From IMG/VR virus record IMGVR_UViG_3300035497_000528: 56,236 nt of DNA, one strand, 5' to 3'. This stretch comes from a virus. The notes below the pieces were generated by a model. It worked only from the letters and a program-made list of their open reading frames with translations. It was not told the origin of the DNA and made no database searches. Each line of letters starts with the position of its first letter. The stretch's first letter is position 1. Shown here one piece after another: positions 49,838 through 56,236 of this stretch. The position numbers were made by a program, and so were the translations under genes.

Positions 49838-51196
49838 ATGGCATATGTAGGTTATATTACTACTCTTACTAATGTTAGAAAACATTCTAATGCAGATCGG
49901 CTTCTTCTGGCAGATTGTTTTGGAAATACAGTTTGTGTTAACCTTGAGTATAAAGAAGGTCAGGTCGGAGTTTATTTTCCAACTGATGGTCAGCTTTCTG
50001 TAGAATTTTGTGAAAAAAATAACCTTGTACGAAAGAAAGATGAAACCGGAAAAAACATTGGCGGATATATGGATCCGGATAAAAGAAATGTAACTTCTAT
50101 TCGGTTAAGAGGAGAAAAATCTGATGGTTTGTTTCTTCCTCTTACTTGTTTAGAATATACTGGAATAGATCTTTCTAAATTGACTGTTGGTCAAACTATT
50201 GATATAGTTAATGGTCATGAGATTTGTAAGAAATATATTCCGAAACGTAAAAATTCTGAACCTCGTGAAAGAGGAAATAAAACTCGTAAAAAGAAAGTGA
50301 ATATTGCTCCACTCTTTACTGAGCATGCAGATACTGAGCAGCTTGCTTATAATCTTTCTGCATTTCACCCTGGAGATTGTGTTGAAATTACTTTGAAGAT
50401 GCATGGAACTTCTCAGAGAACCGCATATCTTCCAGTGTTTCAAAACTTTGCAGATTCTACTTTTTGCAATATTAAAAATAATATTCGTAAAATCTGGGCA
50501 AAAATTTGGAAGAAAGAATTTGATCCAAATCATAATGGTAAACCGCAATATGATTGGGGTTATATTTCTGGAACTCGTCGTTGTGTACTTGACGATTACG
50601 AAGGTGGATTTTATGGATCTAATAGCTTTAGAGAAAAACACTCTAAATTTTTTGAAGGGAAACTTCTAAAAGGTGAAGAGGTTTATTATGAAGTTGTTGG
50701 TTTTTGCGATTCTGCTACACCAATTATGTCTACTGTAAGTAATTCTAAAACTCAAGATAAAGAGTTTATTAAAAGATACGGAAAAGAAACTACTTTTTCT
50801 TATGGATGCACACCGCCAGATTCGGATTTCTATATTTATAGAATGACTATGACCAATGAAGATGGAGATATTATTGAATATGATCCAGATCTTGTTCGTT
50901 ATCGCGCATCTCAGATGGGGGCTAAATGTGTACCTTTCCTTTGGAGAGGTTATATTCCAGAAGATGCTGAAAACGCTGGAGAGTATATTAAAGAAATTGC
51001 TGAAAAATTCTATGATGGTCCAGACCCCATTGGACAAACTCATGTTCGTGAAGGCGTAGTATGCAGAATTATTAATCGTCCAAAATTTACTGCTTATAAA
51101 CATAAGAATTTTTCTTTTAAAGTTCTTGAGGGAATTGCTAAAGTAGAAGCTGAAGCACCAGATATGGAAGAGGCTCAGGAGGCGACAGAAGAATGA
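49838..51196 (+). CDS. ATP-dependent RNA ligase (Rnl2/Rnl5 DraRnl-like nucleotidyltransferase)
   Basis: lysine-nucleotidyltransferase motif I ITLKMHGTS (K.HGT as in Rnl2 KIHGTN); N-terminal MAYVGYITTL..KHSNADRL; 452 aa. Confidence 0.65.
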   Translation: MAYVGYITTLTNVRKHSNADRLLLADCFGNTVCVNLEYKEGQVGVYFPTDGQLSVEFCEKNNLVRKKDETGKNIGGYMDPDKRNVTSIRLRGEKSDGLFLPLTCLEYTGIDLSKLTVGQTIDIVNGHEICKKYIPKRKNSEPRERGNKTRKKKVNIAPLFTEHADTEQLAYNLSAFHPGDCVEITLKMHGTSQRTAYLPVFQNFADSTFCNIKNNIRKIWAKIWKKEFDPNHNGKPQYDWGYISGTRRCVLDDYEGGFYGSNSFREKHSKFFEGKLLKGEEVYYEVVGFCDSATPIMSTVSNSKTQDKEFIKRYGKETTFSYGCTPPDSDFYIYRMTMTNEDGDIIEYDPDLVRYRASQMGAKCVPFLWRGYIPEDAENAGEYIKEIAEKFYDGPDPIGQTHVREGVVCRIINRPKFTAYKHKNFSFKVLEGIAKVEAEAPDMEEAQEATEE

Positions 51197-51369
51197 TGTT
51201 TGTAATTATTTTAGATTTTATTTGCGCCACTTTATGGGGAATTTGTGCAATGTTAGAACCAAATAATACAGTATTATTTATCCTCAGAATAATACTTAGT
51301 GTTATGTGGGCTGTCTTAGGTGGATTTAATCTCGCAGAATATATTCATCGAAAAAATAAAAGACATTAG
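51193..51369 (+). CDS. small membrane protein (58 aa)
   Basis: ATGA overlap with the ligase stop; two hydrophobic helices; below the track cutoff. Confidence 0.35.
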   Translation: MMFVIILDFICATLWGICAMLEPNNTVLFILRIILSVMWAVLGGFNLAEYIHRKNKRH

Positions 51370-51383
51370 AAGGAGAAAAAACA

Positions 51384-51574
51384 TGGCTAAAGGAAGAGAA
51401 ATTCAGTGTTTACATTATATCTGCGAACATCAGTGTGATTTGGGCAAGGATGCAGTCTTCCGAAAGCTGTGTCAGACTTGTTCCGGATATAAAAAGAAGC
51501 CTGGCGCAAAGCCACGCAGAACTGATACTCGTAAACAGAAACTTGAAAGAATTATGAGGAAGGAGAAATATTGA
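51384..51574 (+). CDS. small Cys-rich basic protein (63 aa; track 51320..51574)
   Basis: RBS aggagaaaaaacATG; CLHYICEHQCD..CQTCSG. Confidence 0.45.
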
Positions 51575-51807
51575 TGGATTTTACAATTATTTATACAGAT
51601 GGGCATTCAACTAAAGTAGCCATTTTTTTTGATAAAAAATTAAATAGCTATAGATATATAAATTTATCCCAAAAGCATATTTGTAAATGTATTTTTCCTT
51701 CTATTAAAGAAGCTTTGAAAGATTTAAAAAAATATGATGAAATTCTTGCTATAAGGTATGAAGGTACTTGGTATGGAATTAATGACTTTATAGAATATTT
51801 TGGATAA
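51571..51807 (+). CDS. hypothetical protein (78 aa)
   Basis: ATGA overlap coupling. Confidence 0.45.
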   Translation: MMDFTIIYTDGHSTKVAIFFDKKLNSYRYINLSQKHICKCIFPSIKEALKDLKKYDEILAIRYEGTWYGINDFIEYFG

Positions 51808-51824
51808 GAAGAGAGGGATTAACA

Positions 51825-52274
51825 ATGACTTTAGAAAAACTTCAGAAAGAAATGATTCAAAGCATGAAGAATGGAGATAAAGTAAGGAAAGATACTTTAT
51901 CTAGCATGGTTTCCGCAGTTAAAAAAGCTGCTATTGATAAAAGATGTAAAGACAATATTTCTGAATCTTTGGTAGATGCGGTTATTCTTAAAGAGCAGAA
52001 AACTATGCAAGAAATGATTGATACATGTCCAGTTGAAAGAGTAGAAACATTGACTTTATATAAGCAAAAAATGGAAATTATTAAAGAATTTGCCCCAACT
52101 CTTTTGACAGATCCAGCAGAAATTGAACTGGAAGTCCGAAATATCGCTGCTGAATTGAATATTACTTTGGGTAAGAAAGATGCCGGTATTGTTATGAAAA
52201 CTATCATGCCTCGTTTTAAAGGCAAGGCAGATATGAGTATAGTAAATAAGGTAATTAAGGGGATGCTTGTATGA
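51825..52274 (+). CDS. GatB/YqeY-domain protein
   Basis: N-terminus MTLEKLQKEMIQSMKNGDKVRKDTLSSMVSAVKKAAIDK and overall pattern match YqeY (MSL.E.L..DMK.AMKA.DK.RL.T.R.L..A.K). Confidence 0.6.
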   Translation: MTLEKLQKEMIQSMKNGDKVRKDTLSSMVSAVKKAAIDKRCKDNISESLVDAVILKEQKTMQEMIDTCPVERVETLTLYKQKMEIIKEFAPTLLTDPAEIELEVRNIAAELNITLGKKDAGIVMKTIMPRFKGKADMSIVNKVIKGMLV

Positions 52275-54740: not shown

Positions 54741-54917
54741 TGATTGATTTTAGCGCTTGCGATAAAAGTGATTTGGCTGAAGCTTTAGAAGCTATAACTT
54801 ATCGTATTCTTCGTTATCAGCATCCTAACTGGTATTCAATACCAGAAGAAGAAATTTATTATCTTCTGAGGGAAGAAGGTCTTTTTGTTCAGTTAATTGA
54901 TGACTACAGAGAATAAA
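54741..54917 (+). CDS. small hypothetical protein (58 aa)
   Basis: RBS tgggagataaaaaaaATG; below track cutoff. Confidence 0.35.
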
Positions 54918-54985
54918 GAATCTTAATTGATTTTTATTTAAAAATATTATATAATATATTTATAAATGATAAGGAAGTGATAAAA

Positions 54986-55195
54986 ATGAAACGAATTGTT
55001 ACAGCATCTTTAACTCAGTTAATTTCATTTGAATTAACGGAAGAAGAAGTTAAAGAAATACTTCAGATAAAATTTGATATTCCTTTGACAGAAAAAGATT
55101 GGGATTTAGCCATTGAGGAAACCATAGATAATTACATTGAAGATAATGATTTATATGATGTAAATGATGTTGAATGGGAAAGCGGCGAAATTTAA
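54986..55195 (+). CDS. hypothetical acidic protein (track 54977..55195)
   Basis: conserved leader aaggaagtgataaaaATG. Confidence 0.45.
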   Translation: MKRIVTASLTQLISFELTEEEVKEILQIKFDIPLTEKDWDLAIEETIDNYIEDNDLYDVNDVEWESGEI

Positions 55196-55221
55196 AAATA
55201 CATTAAAAGAAAGGAAATGAT

Positions 55222-55497
55222 ATGAAGTATGAAGAACATGTTTTTTATTGCATGAATTGTGGAAGAAAGGGAATTCCTCTTATGAGGAAATCTGGATTTC
55301 AGCATGAAAGATTTCATAGGAAAAAGTTATATTGCCCATTCTGTAAAATGGAAGTCAATCATGTTGAATGTAAAACATATGCAGATGTAGAAGAATTTAA
55401 AGAAAATTTTGAAAAAGGGGTGTACAGAGATGAAGCAGAAGAGTCTATTTCTTATGTGCGGTCCAGCAGGGAGTGGAAAAACTACGTGGGTGCGTAA
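55222..55497 (+). CDS. zinc-ribbon protein (CxxC..CxxC)
   Basis: YCMNCG...YCPFCKMEV; the 3' end overlaps the next gene out of frame. Confidence 0.45.
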   Translation: MKYEEHVFYCMNCGRKGIPLMRKSGFQHERFHRKKLYCPFCKMEVNHVECKTYADVEEFKENFEKGVYRDEAEESISYVRSSREWKNYVGA

Positions 55498-55936
55498 ACA
55501 AATTAGTGAATGTAATTATCCTTGTATTCATATTTCACGAGATGAAGTTCGGGCAGAATTTTTGAAAGATAAAGATAAGAATATATTTGCTTATGAAGAT
55601 GATGTCTTTGATGAATTTTGCAGAAGAGTTGAAGTAGCTATTGAAGATGAAAATGGTCCAGATGCAATCTTTGTAGATGCCACTCACCTTTCTGAAAAGG
55701 CAAGGAATAAAGTTCTTGATCGCTTAACTTTAGATAATGTTTATCTGATTCCGGTATCTTTCCAGTTACCATTAGAACAGATTTTAAGCCAGAATGAACA
55801 GCGGAGAGGTCAGAATCGAGCTTATGTACCTCGTTCAGTTATTCGTAGAATGTTTGCTCAATATAACCCGCCAACTGAAAATGAAAAATATCATTATGAC
55901 CATATACTTTTTGCTGGAAAAGAAAAGGAGGATTAA
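55430..55936 (+). CDS. polynucleotide 5'-kinase (T4 Pnk kinase-domain-like P-loop NTPase)
   Basis: LFLMCGPAGSGKTTWVRKQ vs T4 Pnk LTIGCPGSGKSTWAREF; ISRDEVR vs INRDDYR; FVDATHLSEKAR vs ISDTNLNPERR; PRSVIRRMFAQY vs PIDVLRSMYKSM (track 55409..55936). Confidence 0.65.
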   Translation: MKQKSLFLMCGPAGSGKTTWVRKQISECNYPCIHISRDEVRAEFLKDKDKNIFAYEDDVFDEFCRRVEVAIEDENGPDAIFVDATHLSEKARNKVLDRLTLDNVYLIPVSFQLPLEQILSQNEQRRGQNRAYVPRSVIRRMFAQYNPPTENEKYHYDHILFAGKEKED

Positions 55937-56236
55937 ATGATTTATTTTACATCAGATACTCATTTTTGCCATGATAGAGCTTTTATCTGGCAACCAAGAG
56001 GATTTGCAACTGTTAAAGAAATGAATGAAGCTATTATTGATCGGTGGAACAAAGTTGTTCAACCAGAAGATACAGTTTACCATCTGGGCGATTGCGTTTT
56101 AAATGATAACGCCGCAGGAATGGAATGTATGAAAGCTTTAAATGGTAATATTAAGATTCTTCGAGGAAACCATGATACAAATTCAAGAGTTTCACTTTAT
56201 CAGAAAGAAGGCTTTGAAGTTCTTGGTTATGCGGAT
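55937..56236 (+). CDS. calcineurin-like metallophosphoesterase, 5' part (runs off window end); candidate 3'-phosphatase partner of the kinase
   Basis: FTSDTHFCHDRAF (D.H), HLGDCVLND (GD), ILRGNHD (GNHD). Confidence 0.6.
   Translation, partial: MIYFTSDTHFCHDRAFIWQPRGFATVKEMNEAIIDRWNKVVQPEDTVYHLGDCVLNDNAAGMECMKALNGNIKILRGNHDTNSRVSLYQKEGFEVLGYAD

Follow-up and report, generated by a model that had tools for sequence, protein, structure and literature searches.

A Probable RNA Repair Island

The viral DNA described here, from a large uncultured phage, is the IMG/VR virus record IMGVR_UViG_3300035497_000528, a stretch of 56,236 nt which is referred to as the window. It is AT-rich (approximately 28-40% G+C), and nearly every gene is located on the plus strand. 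From about 44.3 kb up to its end, the window encodes an ATP-dependent RNA ligase of the Rnl5 architecture, a stand-alone polynucleotide 5'-OH kinase (Pnk) and, directly following the kinase, a metallophosphoesterase (MPE) designated MPE3, along with the further genes compiled in Table 1. This region is probably a phage island for the repair and maintenance of RNA, most likely of tRNA. An original prediction, made from the DNA letters alone, had described an RNA repair cassette; the open reading frames (ORFs) it named are all present on the plus strand, and each gives the expected family match in Pfam.

No near-identical relative of the 44-56 kb region was found among cultured phages by megablast. 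The window is essentially co-linear with a 175.6-kb IMG/VR viral contig, on which the ligase is 91% and the kinase 96% identical, and ligase homologues occur on uncultured viral contigs of up to approximately 200 kb. Gene neighbourhoods were surveyed over ±10 kb around 80 ligase homologues of 53-91% identity. These loci are partly redundant, many of them originating from a single metagenome, and the neighbour counts are lower bounds because homologues were detected by BLASTP at 1e-4. Within 10 kb of the ligase, RlaP is found in 65 of the 80 loci and Pnk in 54, followed by the Zn-ribbon gene (22/80), the Thg1-like gene (19/80), NADAR (17/80) and YqeY (15/80). Since the ligase has at least 8000 relatives in metagenomes (63-68% identity) and the gene set recurs around 80 related ligases, the ORFs of the island are conserved genes rather than chance reading frames.

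Table 1: Features of the window that belong to the repair island or bear on its interpretation.
Feature	Position	Strand	Evidence
27 tRNA genes and one 124-nt tRNA-like gene	24785..38264	+	ARAGORN 27; Rfam 28 matches
Thg1-like protein (bacterial TLP type), 3'-5' templated nucleotidyltransferase	44305..45150	+	PF04446 and PDB 4kgk
HD hydrolase, RelA/SpoT-Mesh1/small-alarmone-hydrolase type, motif HDLIEDT	45636..46100	+	Pfam HD 3.8e-4
Probable RlaP-family Pol-beta nucleotidyltransferase	46470..47258	+	phrog_388 6e-22; Pfam RlaP 6.2e-4
Metallophosphoesterase MPE1	47258..48034	+	Metallophos 8.6e-14; phrog_1649 1.2e-25
DEDDh 3'-5' exonuclease, RNase T/Rv2179c-like	48522..49325	+	RNase_T 1.8e-17; Rv2179c-like 1.4e-6
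cRec (cyclic-phosphate-processing receiver) protein	49322..49759	+	PF20274 cREC_REC 3.9e-16, 60 bits vs cutoff 27
Promoter-like element heading the ligase unit	49767..49795	+	TTGATT-N17-TATAAT
ATP-dependent RNA ligase, Rnl5 (DraRnl/NgrRnl) architecture	49838..51196	+	452 aa; motifs, TIGR02306, Foldseek, phrog_968
GatB/YqeY-domain protein	51825..52274	+	Pfam YqeY 1.1e-19
NADAR-domain protein (ADP-ribose processing)	52922..53362	+	Pfam NADAR 7.1e-29
Metallophosphoesterase MPE2, lambda-phosphatase/NinI/ApaH type	53999..54724	+	Metallophos 6.5e-14; DLHG, GDCGDRG, GNHE
Zn-ribbon protein, CxxC...CxxC	55222..55497	+	91 aa; phrog_1257 1.1e-8
Stand-alone polynucleotide 5'-OH kinase (Pnk)	55430..55936	+	168 aa; AAA_33 1.6e-18, phrog_505, PDB matches
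Metallophosphoesterase MPE3, first 100 codons, cut by the window end	55937..56236	+	1xm7, phrog_547

The RNA Ligase

The ligase consists of an N-terminal OB domain, a basic linker and a nucleotidyltransferase domain, and it has no C-terminal domain. Motif I reads T185-L-K187-M-H189-G190-T-S and is followed by the motifs III (E280...E285-V-V-G), IIIa (Y332/Y334), IV (R404-E405-G-V-V) and V (K421-x-K423). In an alignment of 26 homologues all of these are invariant or nearly so, and the KMHGTS signature noted for the predicted Rnl2/Rnl5-type ligase, beginning at K187, is invariant. The C-terminus is reached 29 residues past K423 of motif V; in the structure model, this tail is one helix followed by disorder. 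The DraRnl clade has been defined by an OB-like N-terminal module, the lack of a C-terminal domain, and the signatures T-x-K-x-H-G and EGVV (PMC1807946, where the essential residues of DraRnl are also given), all four of which are found in the window ligase.

Among profile databases, PHROGs assigns the ligase to phrog_968 ("RNA ligase", 1.7e-60), and residues 11-200 match NCBIfam TIGR02306, which is built on Deinococcus DRB0094, that is, DraRnl (2e-14). The Pfam matches to PF21189 ("PHA02142 OB-fold", residues 8-102) and to PF09414 (RNA_ligase) both remain under the gathering score, and residues 32-103 align with the OB domain of the Naegleria gruberi RNA ligase, NgrRnl, in phmmer. Since sequence searches of the PDB were not significant, neither with the single sequence (E approximately 0.3) nor with a profile of 26 sequences, the link to Rnl5 required NCBIfam and a fold search. 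In the latter, NgrRnl is the best Foldseek match of the ligase model, over its full length (E 1.3e-13); T4 Rnl2 comes next (6.6e-7), followed by REL1 and archaeal Rnl3 enzymes, and the similarity to the Pnkp ligase domain is marginal only (E 0.02-0.3). The family is not new to phages: homologues named "RNA ligase" are present in the Bacillus phages Kirov, PBC2 and Thrax at approximately 50% identity and in about 296 mycobacteriophage records at approximately 30% identity.

The Polynucleotide Kinase and the Overlapping Zn-Ribbon Gene

The longest ORF of the kinase begins with TTG at 55409. The ATG at 55430, which is preceded by AAAGGGG, was chosen as the start because it is the last one to keep the beta-strand before the P-loop. 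The motifs of the kinase are the P-loop GPAGSGKTT, SRD38EVR41, DAT85 and the lid R125-G, and among 49 distinct relatives G11, G16, K17, D38, R41, T85, R92 and R125 are invariant or nearly so; as in the ligase, the catalytic residues are thus intact. PHROGs gives phrog_505 ("polynucleotide kinase", 2.7e-18). The solved kinase domain of Clostridium thermocellum Pnkp (CthPnkp; 4gp7, 5.4e-5) and Capnocytophaga Pnkp1 (4xrp, 5.6e-5) match from end to end, whereas T4 Pnk (1ly1) aligns over residues 11-64 only, in the P-loop region (phmmer, E 0.005-0.02). The strong similarity to T4 Pnk that had been predicted is therefore overstated: the catalytic residues align with T4 K15, D35, R38, T86 and R126, but by its sequence the enzyme is nearer to bacterial Pnkp.

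With respect to CthPnk, K17/T18 correspond to K21/S22, D38 to D38, R41 to R41, T85 to T80, and R125 to R120. In that enzyme K21, S22, the general base D38 and R41 are essential, and R120 belongs to the lid (PMC3902929); the nucleobase-stacking R116 is the sole listed residue without conservation in the window kinase. A weaker similarity to the PSTK family TIGR03574 (1.1e-11) is attributable to the common P-loop kinase clade, and TIGR04075 matches the kinase only (29.7 bits vs a cutoff of 750). The 168-amino acid protein comprises the kinase alone, without a T4-type HAD phosphatase, and no DxDxT motif was found in any related kinase.

The 3' end of the Zn-ribbon gene overlaps the kinase start by 68 nt, and all 14 kinase loci have a Zn-ribbon gene ahead of the kinase, with 65-98% identity. 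Among the more distant of these loci, the Zn-ribbon protein is conserved more strongly than the kinase (65-72% vs 54-66% identity). It might act together with Pnk and MPE3 in end healing. The homologous kinase P0143 bears a fused Zn-ribbon of a different kind (Ogr_Delta), which upon comparison proved unrelated to that of the window. Public gene calls begin inside the kinase, either at a GTG past the P-loop (L001:9162-9608, 148 amino acids) or at MCGPAG (M9, in P0121), so that in the deposited kinase proteins the P-loop strand is incomplete or missing altogether. When the 175-amino acid kinase ORF was looked up by exact sequence, nothing was returned. Both the shortened calls and the failed look-up result from the overlap of the kinase start with the Zn-ribbon ORF.

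Coupling of MPE3 to the Kinase

MPE3 begins at the base following the kinase stop codon (TAA-ATG), leaving a gap of zero nucleotides. Related contigs provide the full length of 184 amino acids (orthologue at L007:8508-9062). In agreement with the predicted calcineurin-type gene directly downstream of the kinase, the part inside the window contains the metal-ligand motifs D7-T-H9, G51-D52 and G77-N78-H79-D80; full-length orthologues add H113 and G136-H137-T-H139, by which the motif set for a binuclear metal centre is complete. Except for the first one (D7, H9), the motifs are at least 95% conserved among 31 relatives. The only significant PDB match of MPE3 is Aquifex aq_1665 (1xm7, 3.4e-14), which came from structural genomics and was deposited as a hypothetical protein, and the PHROGs match is phrog_547 ("phosphoesterase", 3.8e-48). 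Because of these matches, MPE3 is not considered to be of the lambda-phosphatase type of bacterial Pnkp. The likeness to the CthPnkp arrangement that had been proposed is thus correct in that the kinase is followed by an MPE, but this MPE is of the aq_1665 type, and the lambda-like enzyme of the window is MPE2, beginning at 53999.

Three independent lines of evidence support MPE3 as the partner of the kinase, namely conserved linkage, complementary distribution and fusion proteins. Concerning the first, 14 of 14 viral kinase loci show the gene order Zn-ribbon, Pnk, MPE3, down to a kinase identity of 54%. In the ligase loci, short kinases (fewer than 200 amino acids from the P-loop) are followed by MPE3 at a distance of -38 to +238 nt in 23 of 29 cases, and in most of the six exceptions the locus ends there, the gene order is inverted or a gene is split. 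Long kinases (290-330 amino acids), on the other hand, have an adjoining MPE3 in none of 24 cases. These had been expected to be T4-like Pnk-HAD proteins, an assignment that was rejected as the pattern search revealed no DxDxT; according to Pfam, they carry a C-terminal HD domain and are Pnk-HD fusions. After collapsing at 90% ligase identity, 15-16 clusters with short kinase and MPE3 stand against 16-18 clusters with Pnk-HD, and none has both. On the ligase tree the state changes between MPE3 and HD at least five times, with the reservation that this quick neighbour-joining tree is rough and that recombination is likely.

Fusion proteins were obtained from a HMMER scan of 1.84 billion representatives, in which the in-window part of MPE3 as query retrieved 12,989 relatives. 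Among the best 150 of these 12,989 there are four natural Pnk-MPE3 fusions (P0292, P0352, P0378 and P0377), all with Pnk at the N-terminus and MPE3 at the C-terminus. P0292 is 38% identical to the window kinase (1e-27) and 48% to MPE3 (2e-58).

For Runella HD-Pnk, it has been proven that the HD domain heals ends as a 2',3'-phosphoesterase (PMC6097658). Given this and the alternation of MPE3 with HD, the simplest inference is that MPE3 does the end-healing job of the fused HD domain. A metallophosphatase in place of the usual HAD phosphatase had been predicted; the partnership with the kinase stands, but the module displaced in this phage lineage is HD, not HAD.

The tRNA Array and a Common Promoter-Like Motif

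Upstream of the island, the window contains a tRNA array, and CCA is not encoded in the tRNA genes examined. The sequence TTGATT-N17-TATAAT, with an A/T-rich spacer, is present in the window in 31 exact copies, against 0.13 expected. The copies extend from 8744 to 54955 (e.g., at 24182 and 36707), 30 of the 31 are on the plus strand, and all are intergenic. Only this form is enriched, since a generic promoter scan remained at chance (70 found vs 68.6 expected). Since both tRNA clusters as well as repair units are headed by it, the motif has the look of a single class of phage promoters. Ten copies lie within the tRNA array and six head repair units, at 44072, 45580, 48067, 49767, 53409 and 54927, four of these six coming after terminator-like hairpins. 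The positions of motif and hairpins suggest the transcription units [Thg1-like]; [HD, RlaP, MPE1]; [DEDDh, cRec]; [ligase...YqeY...NADAR]; [MPE2]; and [Zn-ribbon, Pnk, MPE3]. A sigma factor gene is located at 23232-24125 (phrog_351, 1.5e-95). As the island adjoins the array and has the promoter class in common with it, tRNA is the most likely substrate; the tRNAs of the array are likely to be clients of the repair or maturation enzymes, or replacements for cleaved host tRNAs.

One member of the array, the 124-nt tRNA-like gene at 38061-38184 (+), gives an Rfam tRNA match of 35.7 bits but no ARAGORN call. Its sequence can be read as that of a class-II tRNA-Tyr (GUA) in which an insert of about 40 nucleotides separates the D arm from the anticodon stem; this insert is flanked by two alternative 5' stem strands, CCGGA and CUGGA. 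A normal tRNA-Tyr is present at 25420. The gene could be an intron-like, pseudogene or regulatory element; that it is spliced by the protein machinery of the island is much less likely.

The same surroundings would also be compatible with a module that matures the phage's own tRNAs instead of repairing damage, a function that could coexist with repair but is, taken as the explanation of the island, unlikely. The DEDDh exonuclease would then trim 3' trailers, the Thg1-like enzyme and RlaP would finish the ends, and kinase, phosphoesterase and ligase would connect tRNA fragments, such as those left once the insert of the 124-nt gene is excised. RNase T-type enzymes are tRNA 3'-end maturases, and the position of the island directly after the 28-tRNA array, the promoter class common to both, the lack of encoded CCA and the extra nucleotides between alternative anticodon-stem strands in the tRNA-like gene all fit such a role. 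However, bacterial tRNA maturation is not known to need a ligase or Pnk, and no splicing endonuclease was identified. The tRNA-His gene (28922-28997, +) already encodes G at -1 opposite C73, again without CCA; the Thg1-like enzyme is therefore not needed there, which fits repair better than His-specific maturation. Finally, the insert-bearing tRNA is kept in one near-identical relative only, the sole one found and uninformative on conservation, whereas the set of ligase, RlaP and Pnk is found in 80 diverse loci.

Proposed Repair Pathway and Competing Explanations

For the preferred reading as a tRNA repair island, a mechanism can be drawn, with all its substrates, activities and the allocation of phosphoesterases to individual steps, from the reactions established for T4 Pnkp/Rnl, CthPnkp, HD-Pnk, Rnl5, RlaP and the Thg1-like proteins (TLPs). 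Pnk would phosphorylate the 5'-OH end, with K17/T18-Mg holding the nucleoside triphosphate and D38/R41 serving as general base and acceptor clamp. MPE3 would open the cyclic phosphate and/or strip the 3'-phosphate to yield a 3'-OH, a step that is the job of HD in the sister Pnk-HD proteins, of HAD in T4 Pnkp and of the lambda-like MPE in bacterial Pnkp. The ligase, adenylylated at K187, would seal the 3'-OH/5'-PO4 break; by analogy with DraRnl and NgrRnl, its substrate would be a nicked strand within a duplex, for instance in the stem-loop of a tRNA. In case of lost nucleotides, RlaP would refill the 3' side and the Thg1-like enzyme would rebuild 5' ends, while cRec, MPE1, MPE2 and the DEDDh exonuclease would provide alternative end clean-up. 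It is a more tentative proposal, at present rather to be doubted than relied upon, that the phrog_547 family as such constitutes an uncharacterised class of RNA/DNA 3'-end-healing enzymes working with Pnk and that Rnl5 ligases act in tRNA repair.

Several points weigh against this reading. Ligase and kinase are 4.2 kb apart and belong to different predicted transcription units, and the assignment of MPE3 to 3'-healing is not unique because cRec, MPE1 and MPE2 are candidates as well. Among these exact families, activity has been measured only for relatives of RlaP and Rnl5. The ligase scores below the curated cut-offs (TIGR02306, 53.2 vs 151 bits; PF09414, 24.9 vs 27), for which reason it is best classified, judging from its sequence, as a divergent phage subfamily (phrog_968) with Rnl5 architecture and not as an equivalog. 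It is also approximately 110 residues longer than the Rnl5 exemplars, with a basic low-confidence linker (residues 126-169) and an insert after motif I, and its AlphaFold model is of moderate quality (pLDDT 67.7). To these points are added that characterised Pnk enzymes act on DNA besides RNA in vitro, and that the relatives of MPE3 are found in other surroundings, as follows.

The fusion protein P0378, found on 114-kb phage contigs (L107-L109; L107 10001-11044), is encoded beside genes for gyrase/topoisomerase and for an NAD-dependent DNA ligase, whereas the surrounding 10 kb contain no RNA ligase. Because of these neighbours, the healing module may serve DNA ends in some phages. Extended to the window, this would mean that the kinase-MPE3 pair, and perhaps the ligase, heal 5'-OH/3'-phosphate nicks in DNA that arise from host nucleases or replication. 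T4 Pnkp, CthPnkp and Runella HD-Pnk use both DNA and RNA in vitro, HD-Pnk having been named a DNA/RNA end-healing enzyme (PMC6097658), and the available part of PMC5397189 reports that loss of DraRnl makes Deinococcus sensitive to ionising radiation. Rnl5 ligases, however, require a strand with an RNA 3'-OH end, as stated in the available parts of PMC7261155 and PMC5397189. Moreover, the neighbours of the ligase in the window and in 65 of 80 relatives are RNA-specific (RlaP, Thg1-like protein, cRec, YqeY, tRNA), and Bacillus phage Kirov possesses a separate ATP-dependent DNA ligase beside its pair of RNA ligase and Pnk. Healing of DNA ends is therefore regarded as very unlikely to be the function of the window genes.

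The phrog_547 family occurs in 1440 records of cultured phages, mostly without a kinase nearby. In Enterococcus phage EFGrNG (L103, MW004545.1 97530-100235), an MPE3-type phosphoesterase gene is clustered with those of a Rv2179c-like 3'-5' exoribonuclease, a second MPE and a lambda-like Ser/Thr phosphatase, again without a kinase; the gene upstream of the MPE3 homologue was considered as a kinase candidate and rejected, as it is the exoribonuclease. In this cluster, enzyme families of the window's set are seen to travel together in Herelleviridae. Such surroundings suit an explanation by which the three MPEs and the DEDDh exonuclease are anti-defence hydrolases of signalling nucleotides (cyclic oligonucleotides, Ap4A, alarmones), their nearness to Pnk and ligase reflecting a general anti-defence island. 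There is a resemblance of MPE2 to ApaH Ap4A hydrolases and of the HD protein to alarmone hydrolases, NADAR domains process ADP-ribose, and calcineurin-like phosphodiesterases have been proposed as counter-signal enzymes in the available part of PMC7824862. It does not account for the direct abutment of the MPE3 and Pnk genes, for the strict alternation between MPE3 and a fused HD domain, or for the existence of Pnk-MPE3 fusions, and as an explanation of the island it is very unlikely. An anti-signalling role is plausible for MPE1, MPE2 and the HD protein individually, and in principle also for the MPE3 family at large.

Comparison with Known Systems

The large-phage toolkit described in section 3.4.9 of PMC7824862 (Iyer et al. 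2021, available in part) comprises tRNA arrays, ATP-dependent RNA ligases, Pnk, phosphoesterases of the 2H, cRec and HAD types, RlaP and Thg1, and mentions a few phages with a phosphatase that is "calcineurin-like and HD-like". With these toolkits the window shares a ligase-linked cRec, an RlaP whose distribution mirrors that of the ligase, a sporadic Thg1 and NADAR. Since the same toolkit, with calcineurin-like and HD phosphatases, is already described for large phages, the island is conceptually known, and the locus adds little new in concept. The end-healing set had been predicted to be unusually rich. Rich it is, but unusual only in relative terms because equally rich sets are common in the clade and described in this source; likewise, the members that had been listed are real, but the Thg1-like gene (44305), cRec (49322) and the 28-tRNA array had been left out. 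Most phage ligases are Rnl1 or Rnl2 according to the same part of PMC7824862, unlike the Rnl5-like ligase of the window. An aq_1665-type MPE, the alternation with Pnk-HD, Pnk-MPE3 fusions and the Zn-ribbon gene were not found in the available part of PMC7824862, and Burroughs & Aravind 2016 may cover some of these.

Uncultured sister phages and the cultured Bacillus phage Kirov have the same ligase family (49-68% identity), a homologous kinase and RlaP in common with the window. In Kirov, the RNA ligase Kirov_99 is directly followed by Kirov_98, a "polynucleotide kinase" that is a Pnk-HD. In contrast, the window kinase has lost or never had HD and is followed by a separate MPE gene. Runella slithyformis HD-Pnk shows the reverse domain order, HD preceding Pnk, in comparison to the phage Pnk-HD proteins.

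CthPnkp, which is partnered with Hen1, and the Capnocytophaga Pnkp1/Rnl/Hen1 system provide the best solved matches of the kinase, and the succession of kinase and binuclear MPE as well as the heal-and-seal logic are alike. In CthPnkp these activities reside on one polypeptide, whereas the window proteins are encoded by separate genes; furthermore, MPE3 is of the aq_1665 type, the lambda-like enzyme, MPE2, is encoded on its own 0.7 kb upstream, and the ligase is Rnl5-like rather than a Pnkp ligase domain. Of the ORFs scanned in 44-56 kb, none resembled Hen1.

A phage-encoded combination of 5' kinase, 3' phosphatase and ligase is known from T4 Pnkp and Rnl1, which perform tRNA repair against PrrC, and the nucleotidyltransferase domain of the window ligase has T4 Rnl2 as its second-best structural match. 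Different from T4, there is no HAD (DxDxT), an N-terminal OB domain replaces the C-terminal domains of Rnl1 and Rnl2, and RlaP and the Thg1-like protein are additionally present. The ligase resembles Deinococcus radiodurans DraRnl and NgrRnl in that an OB-like module precedes a nucleotidyltransferase domain which ends soon after motif V; in contrast to the Rnl5 family so far, its gene neighbourhood suggests a connection with tRNA.

By repairing RNA, phages counteract the anticodon nucleases and related abortive-infection RNases of their hosts, and repair genes are consequently relevant to host range and to the arms race between phages and defence systems. For the very common, unannotated phage "phosphoesterase" family of MPE3, the coupling to the kinase provides a well-supported functional hypothesis, namely 3'-end healing together with Pnk. 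The swapping of HD and MPE modules beside the same kinase represents a natural experiment in the assembly of end-healing enzymes. If the proposal holds true, Pnk-MPE3 would be a further solution besides Pnk-HAD, Pnk-HD, Pnk with a lambda-like MPE, and Pnk-2H. What Rnl5 does physiologically has been called "uncharted" (PMC5397189); the context of tRNA array, RlaP and Thg1-like protein suggests a testable physiological substrate for ligases of this type, and if the proposal is right, the family would gain its first physiological role, the repair of tRNA breaks during phage infection.

Other Genes of the Island

The Thg1-like protein matches PF04446 with 101.6 bits (cutoff 29.2; 4.1e-29) and PDB 4kgk in both halves (5.2e-62). 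Thg1-like enzymes rebuild 5'-truncated tRNA.

A Pol-beta nucleotidyltransferase and an HD protein had been predicted as a possibly split CCA-repair-like or nucleotide-signalling pair. The families are as predicted, but the nucleotidyltransferase is probably of the RlaP group and not half of a CCA enzyme. It is the most faithful neighbour of the ligase in the locus survey; it matches PF10127 over the N-terminal 80 residues only (20 bits vs a cutoff of 23), and a sequence search of the PDB gave no match. RlaP enzymes that have been characterised extend the 3'-OH ends of damaged RNA by 1-2 nucleotides (PMC12776372). The HD protein is Mesh1/small-alarmone-hydrolase-like, with matches to TIGR00691 spoT_relA (1.9e-6), PDB 3nqw (Mesh1, 8e-4) and small-alarmone-hydrolase entries and with the HDxxED signature. 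It was considered as the detached HD domain of Pnk-HD and rejected, no similarity being detectable; being Mesh1-like and unrelated to that domain, it has a doubtful role in RNA repair.

Both further metallophosphatases of the original prediction, MPE1 and MPE2, are present. The start of MPE1 overlaps the RlaP stop by 1 nt, and the two genes adjoin each other in this order in 17 of the 31 loci containing MPE1. MPE2 matches the lambda Ser/Thr phosphatase (PDB 1g5b, 1e-9) and the NinI-like phrog_246 (1.4e-37). It also matches the MPE segment of phrog_8238, a kinase-MPE-ligase profile of 737 positions, to which the window kinase is similar as well; by its sequence, MPE2 is placed in the MPE clade of the CthPnkp phosphatase module.

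The DEDDh exonuclease and the YqeY-like protein, both foreseen, are likewise confirmed. The former has a C-terminal extension of about 100 amino acids, and of the 19 loci containing its gene, 16 have it directly ahead of the ligase. The YqeY-domain protein is a possible tRNA-binding accessory, and a YqeY gene is also found near the ligase of Bacillus phage Kirov. A link of the NADAR protein to RNA repair is uncertain. The cRec gene ends 78 nt before the ligase start, and a linkage of cRec with RNA ligases has already been described in the available part of PMC7824862. The cRec domain is split by a Cys-rich insert of about 45 residues (CTHCKFYADSECIDCEDCQ), the Pfam match falling into two stretches; the insert is possibly a zinc-binding element.

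Between MPE1 and the exonuclease, a 120-amino acid ORF (48141-48503, +) displays the pattern HDLDK ... H-x-HHHD and has no family match. Upstream of the Thg1-like gene lie a DUF2828/DUF7788 protein (39939-41453, +; phrog_850 "RNA-binding protein", 4.5e-138) and an 814-amino acid major-vault-protein (MVP)-like gene (41589-44033, +; MVP_shoulder 3.2e-21, Vault_3). A 498-amino acid paralogue, 32% identical to the MVP-like protein, follows MPE3 in a relative (L007:9113-10609), and the MVP-like genes may be a ribonucleoprotein or scaffold component of the repair island. Inside the tRNA array, a DUF5662 protein is encoded at 30658-31218 (+; 5.9e-32); it and the 120-amino acid ORF may be related small metal-dependent hydrolases. 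The tRNA-Ile (UAU) at 31224-31312 (+), 89 nt in length, possesses a variable arm of about 20 nt, an unusual feature in a tRNA for Ile. Where the array ends, a class-V aminotransferase/cysteine-desulfurase-like gene (38298-39383; Aminotran_5 2.7e-41) is located on the minus strand and may be linked to tRNA thiolation.

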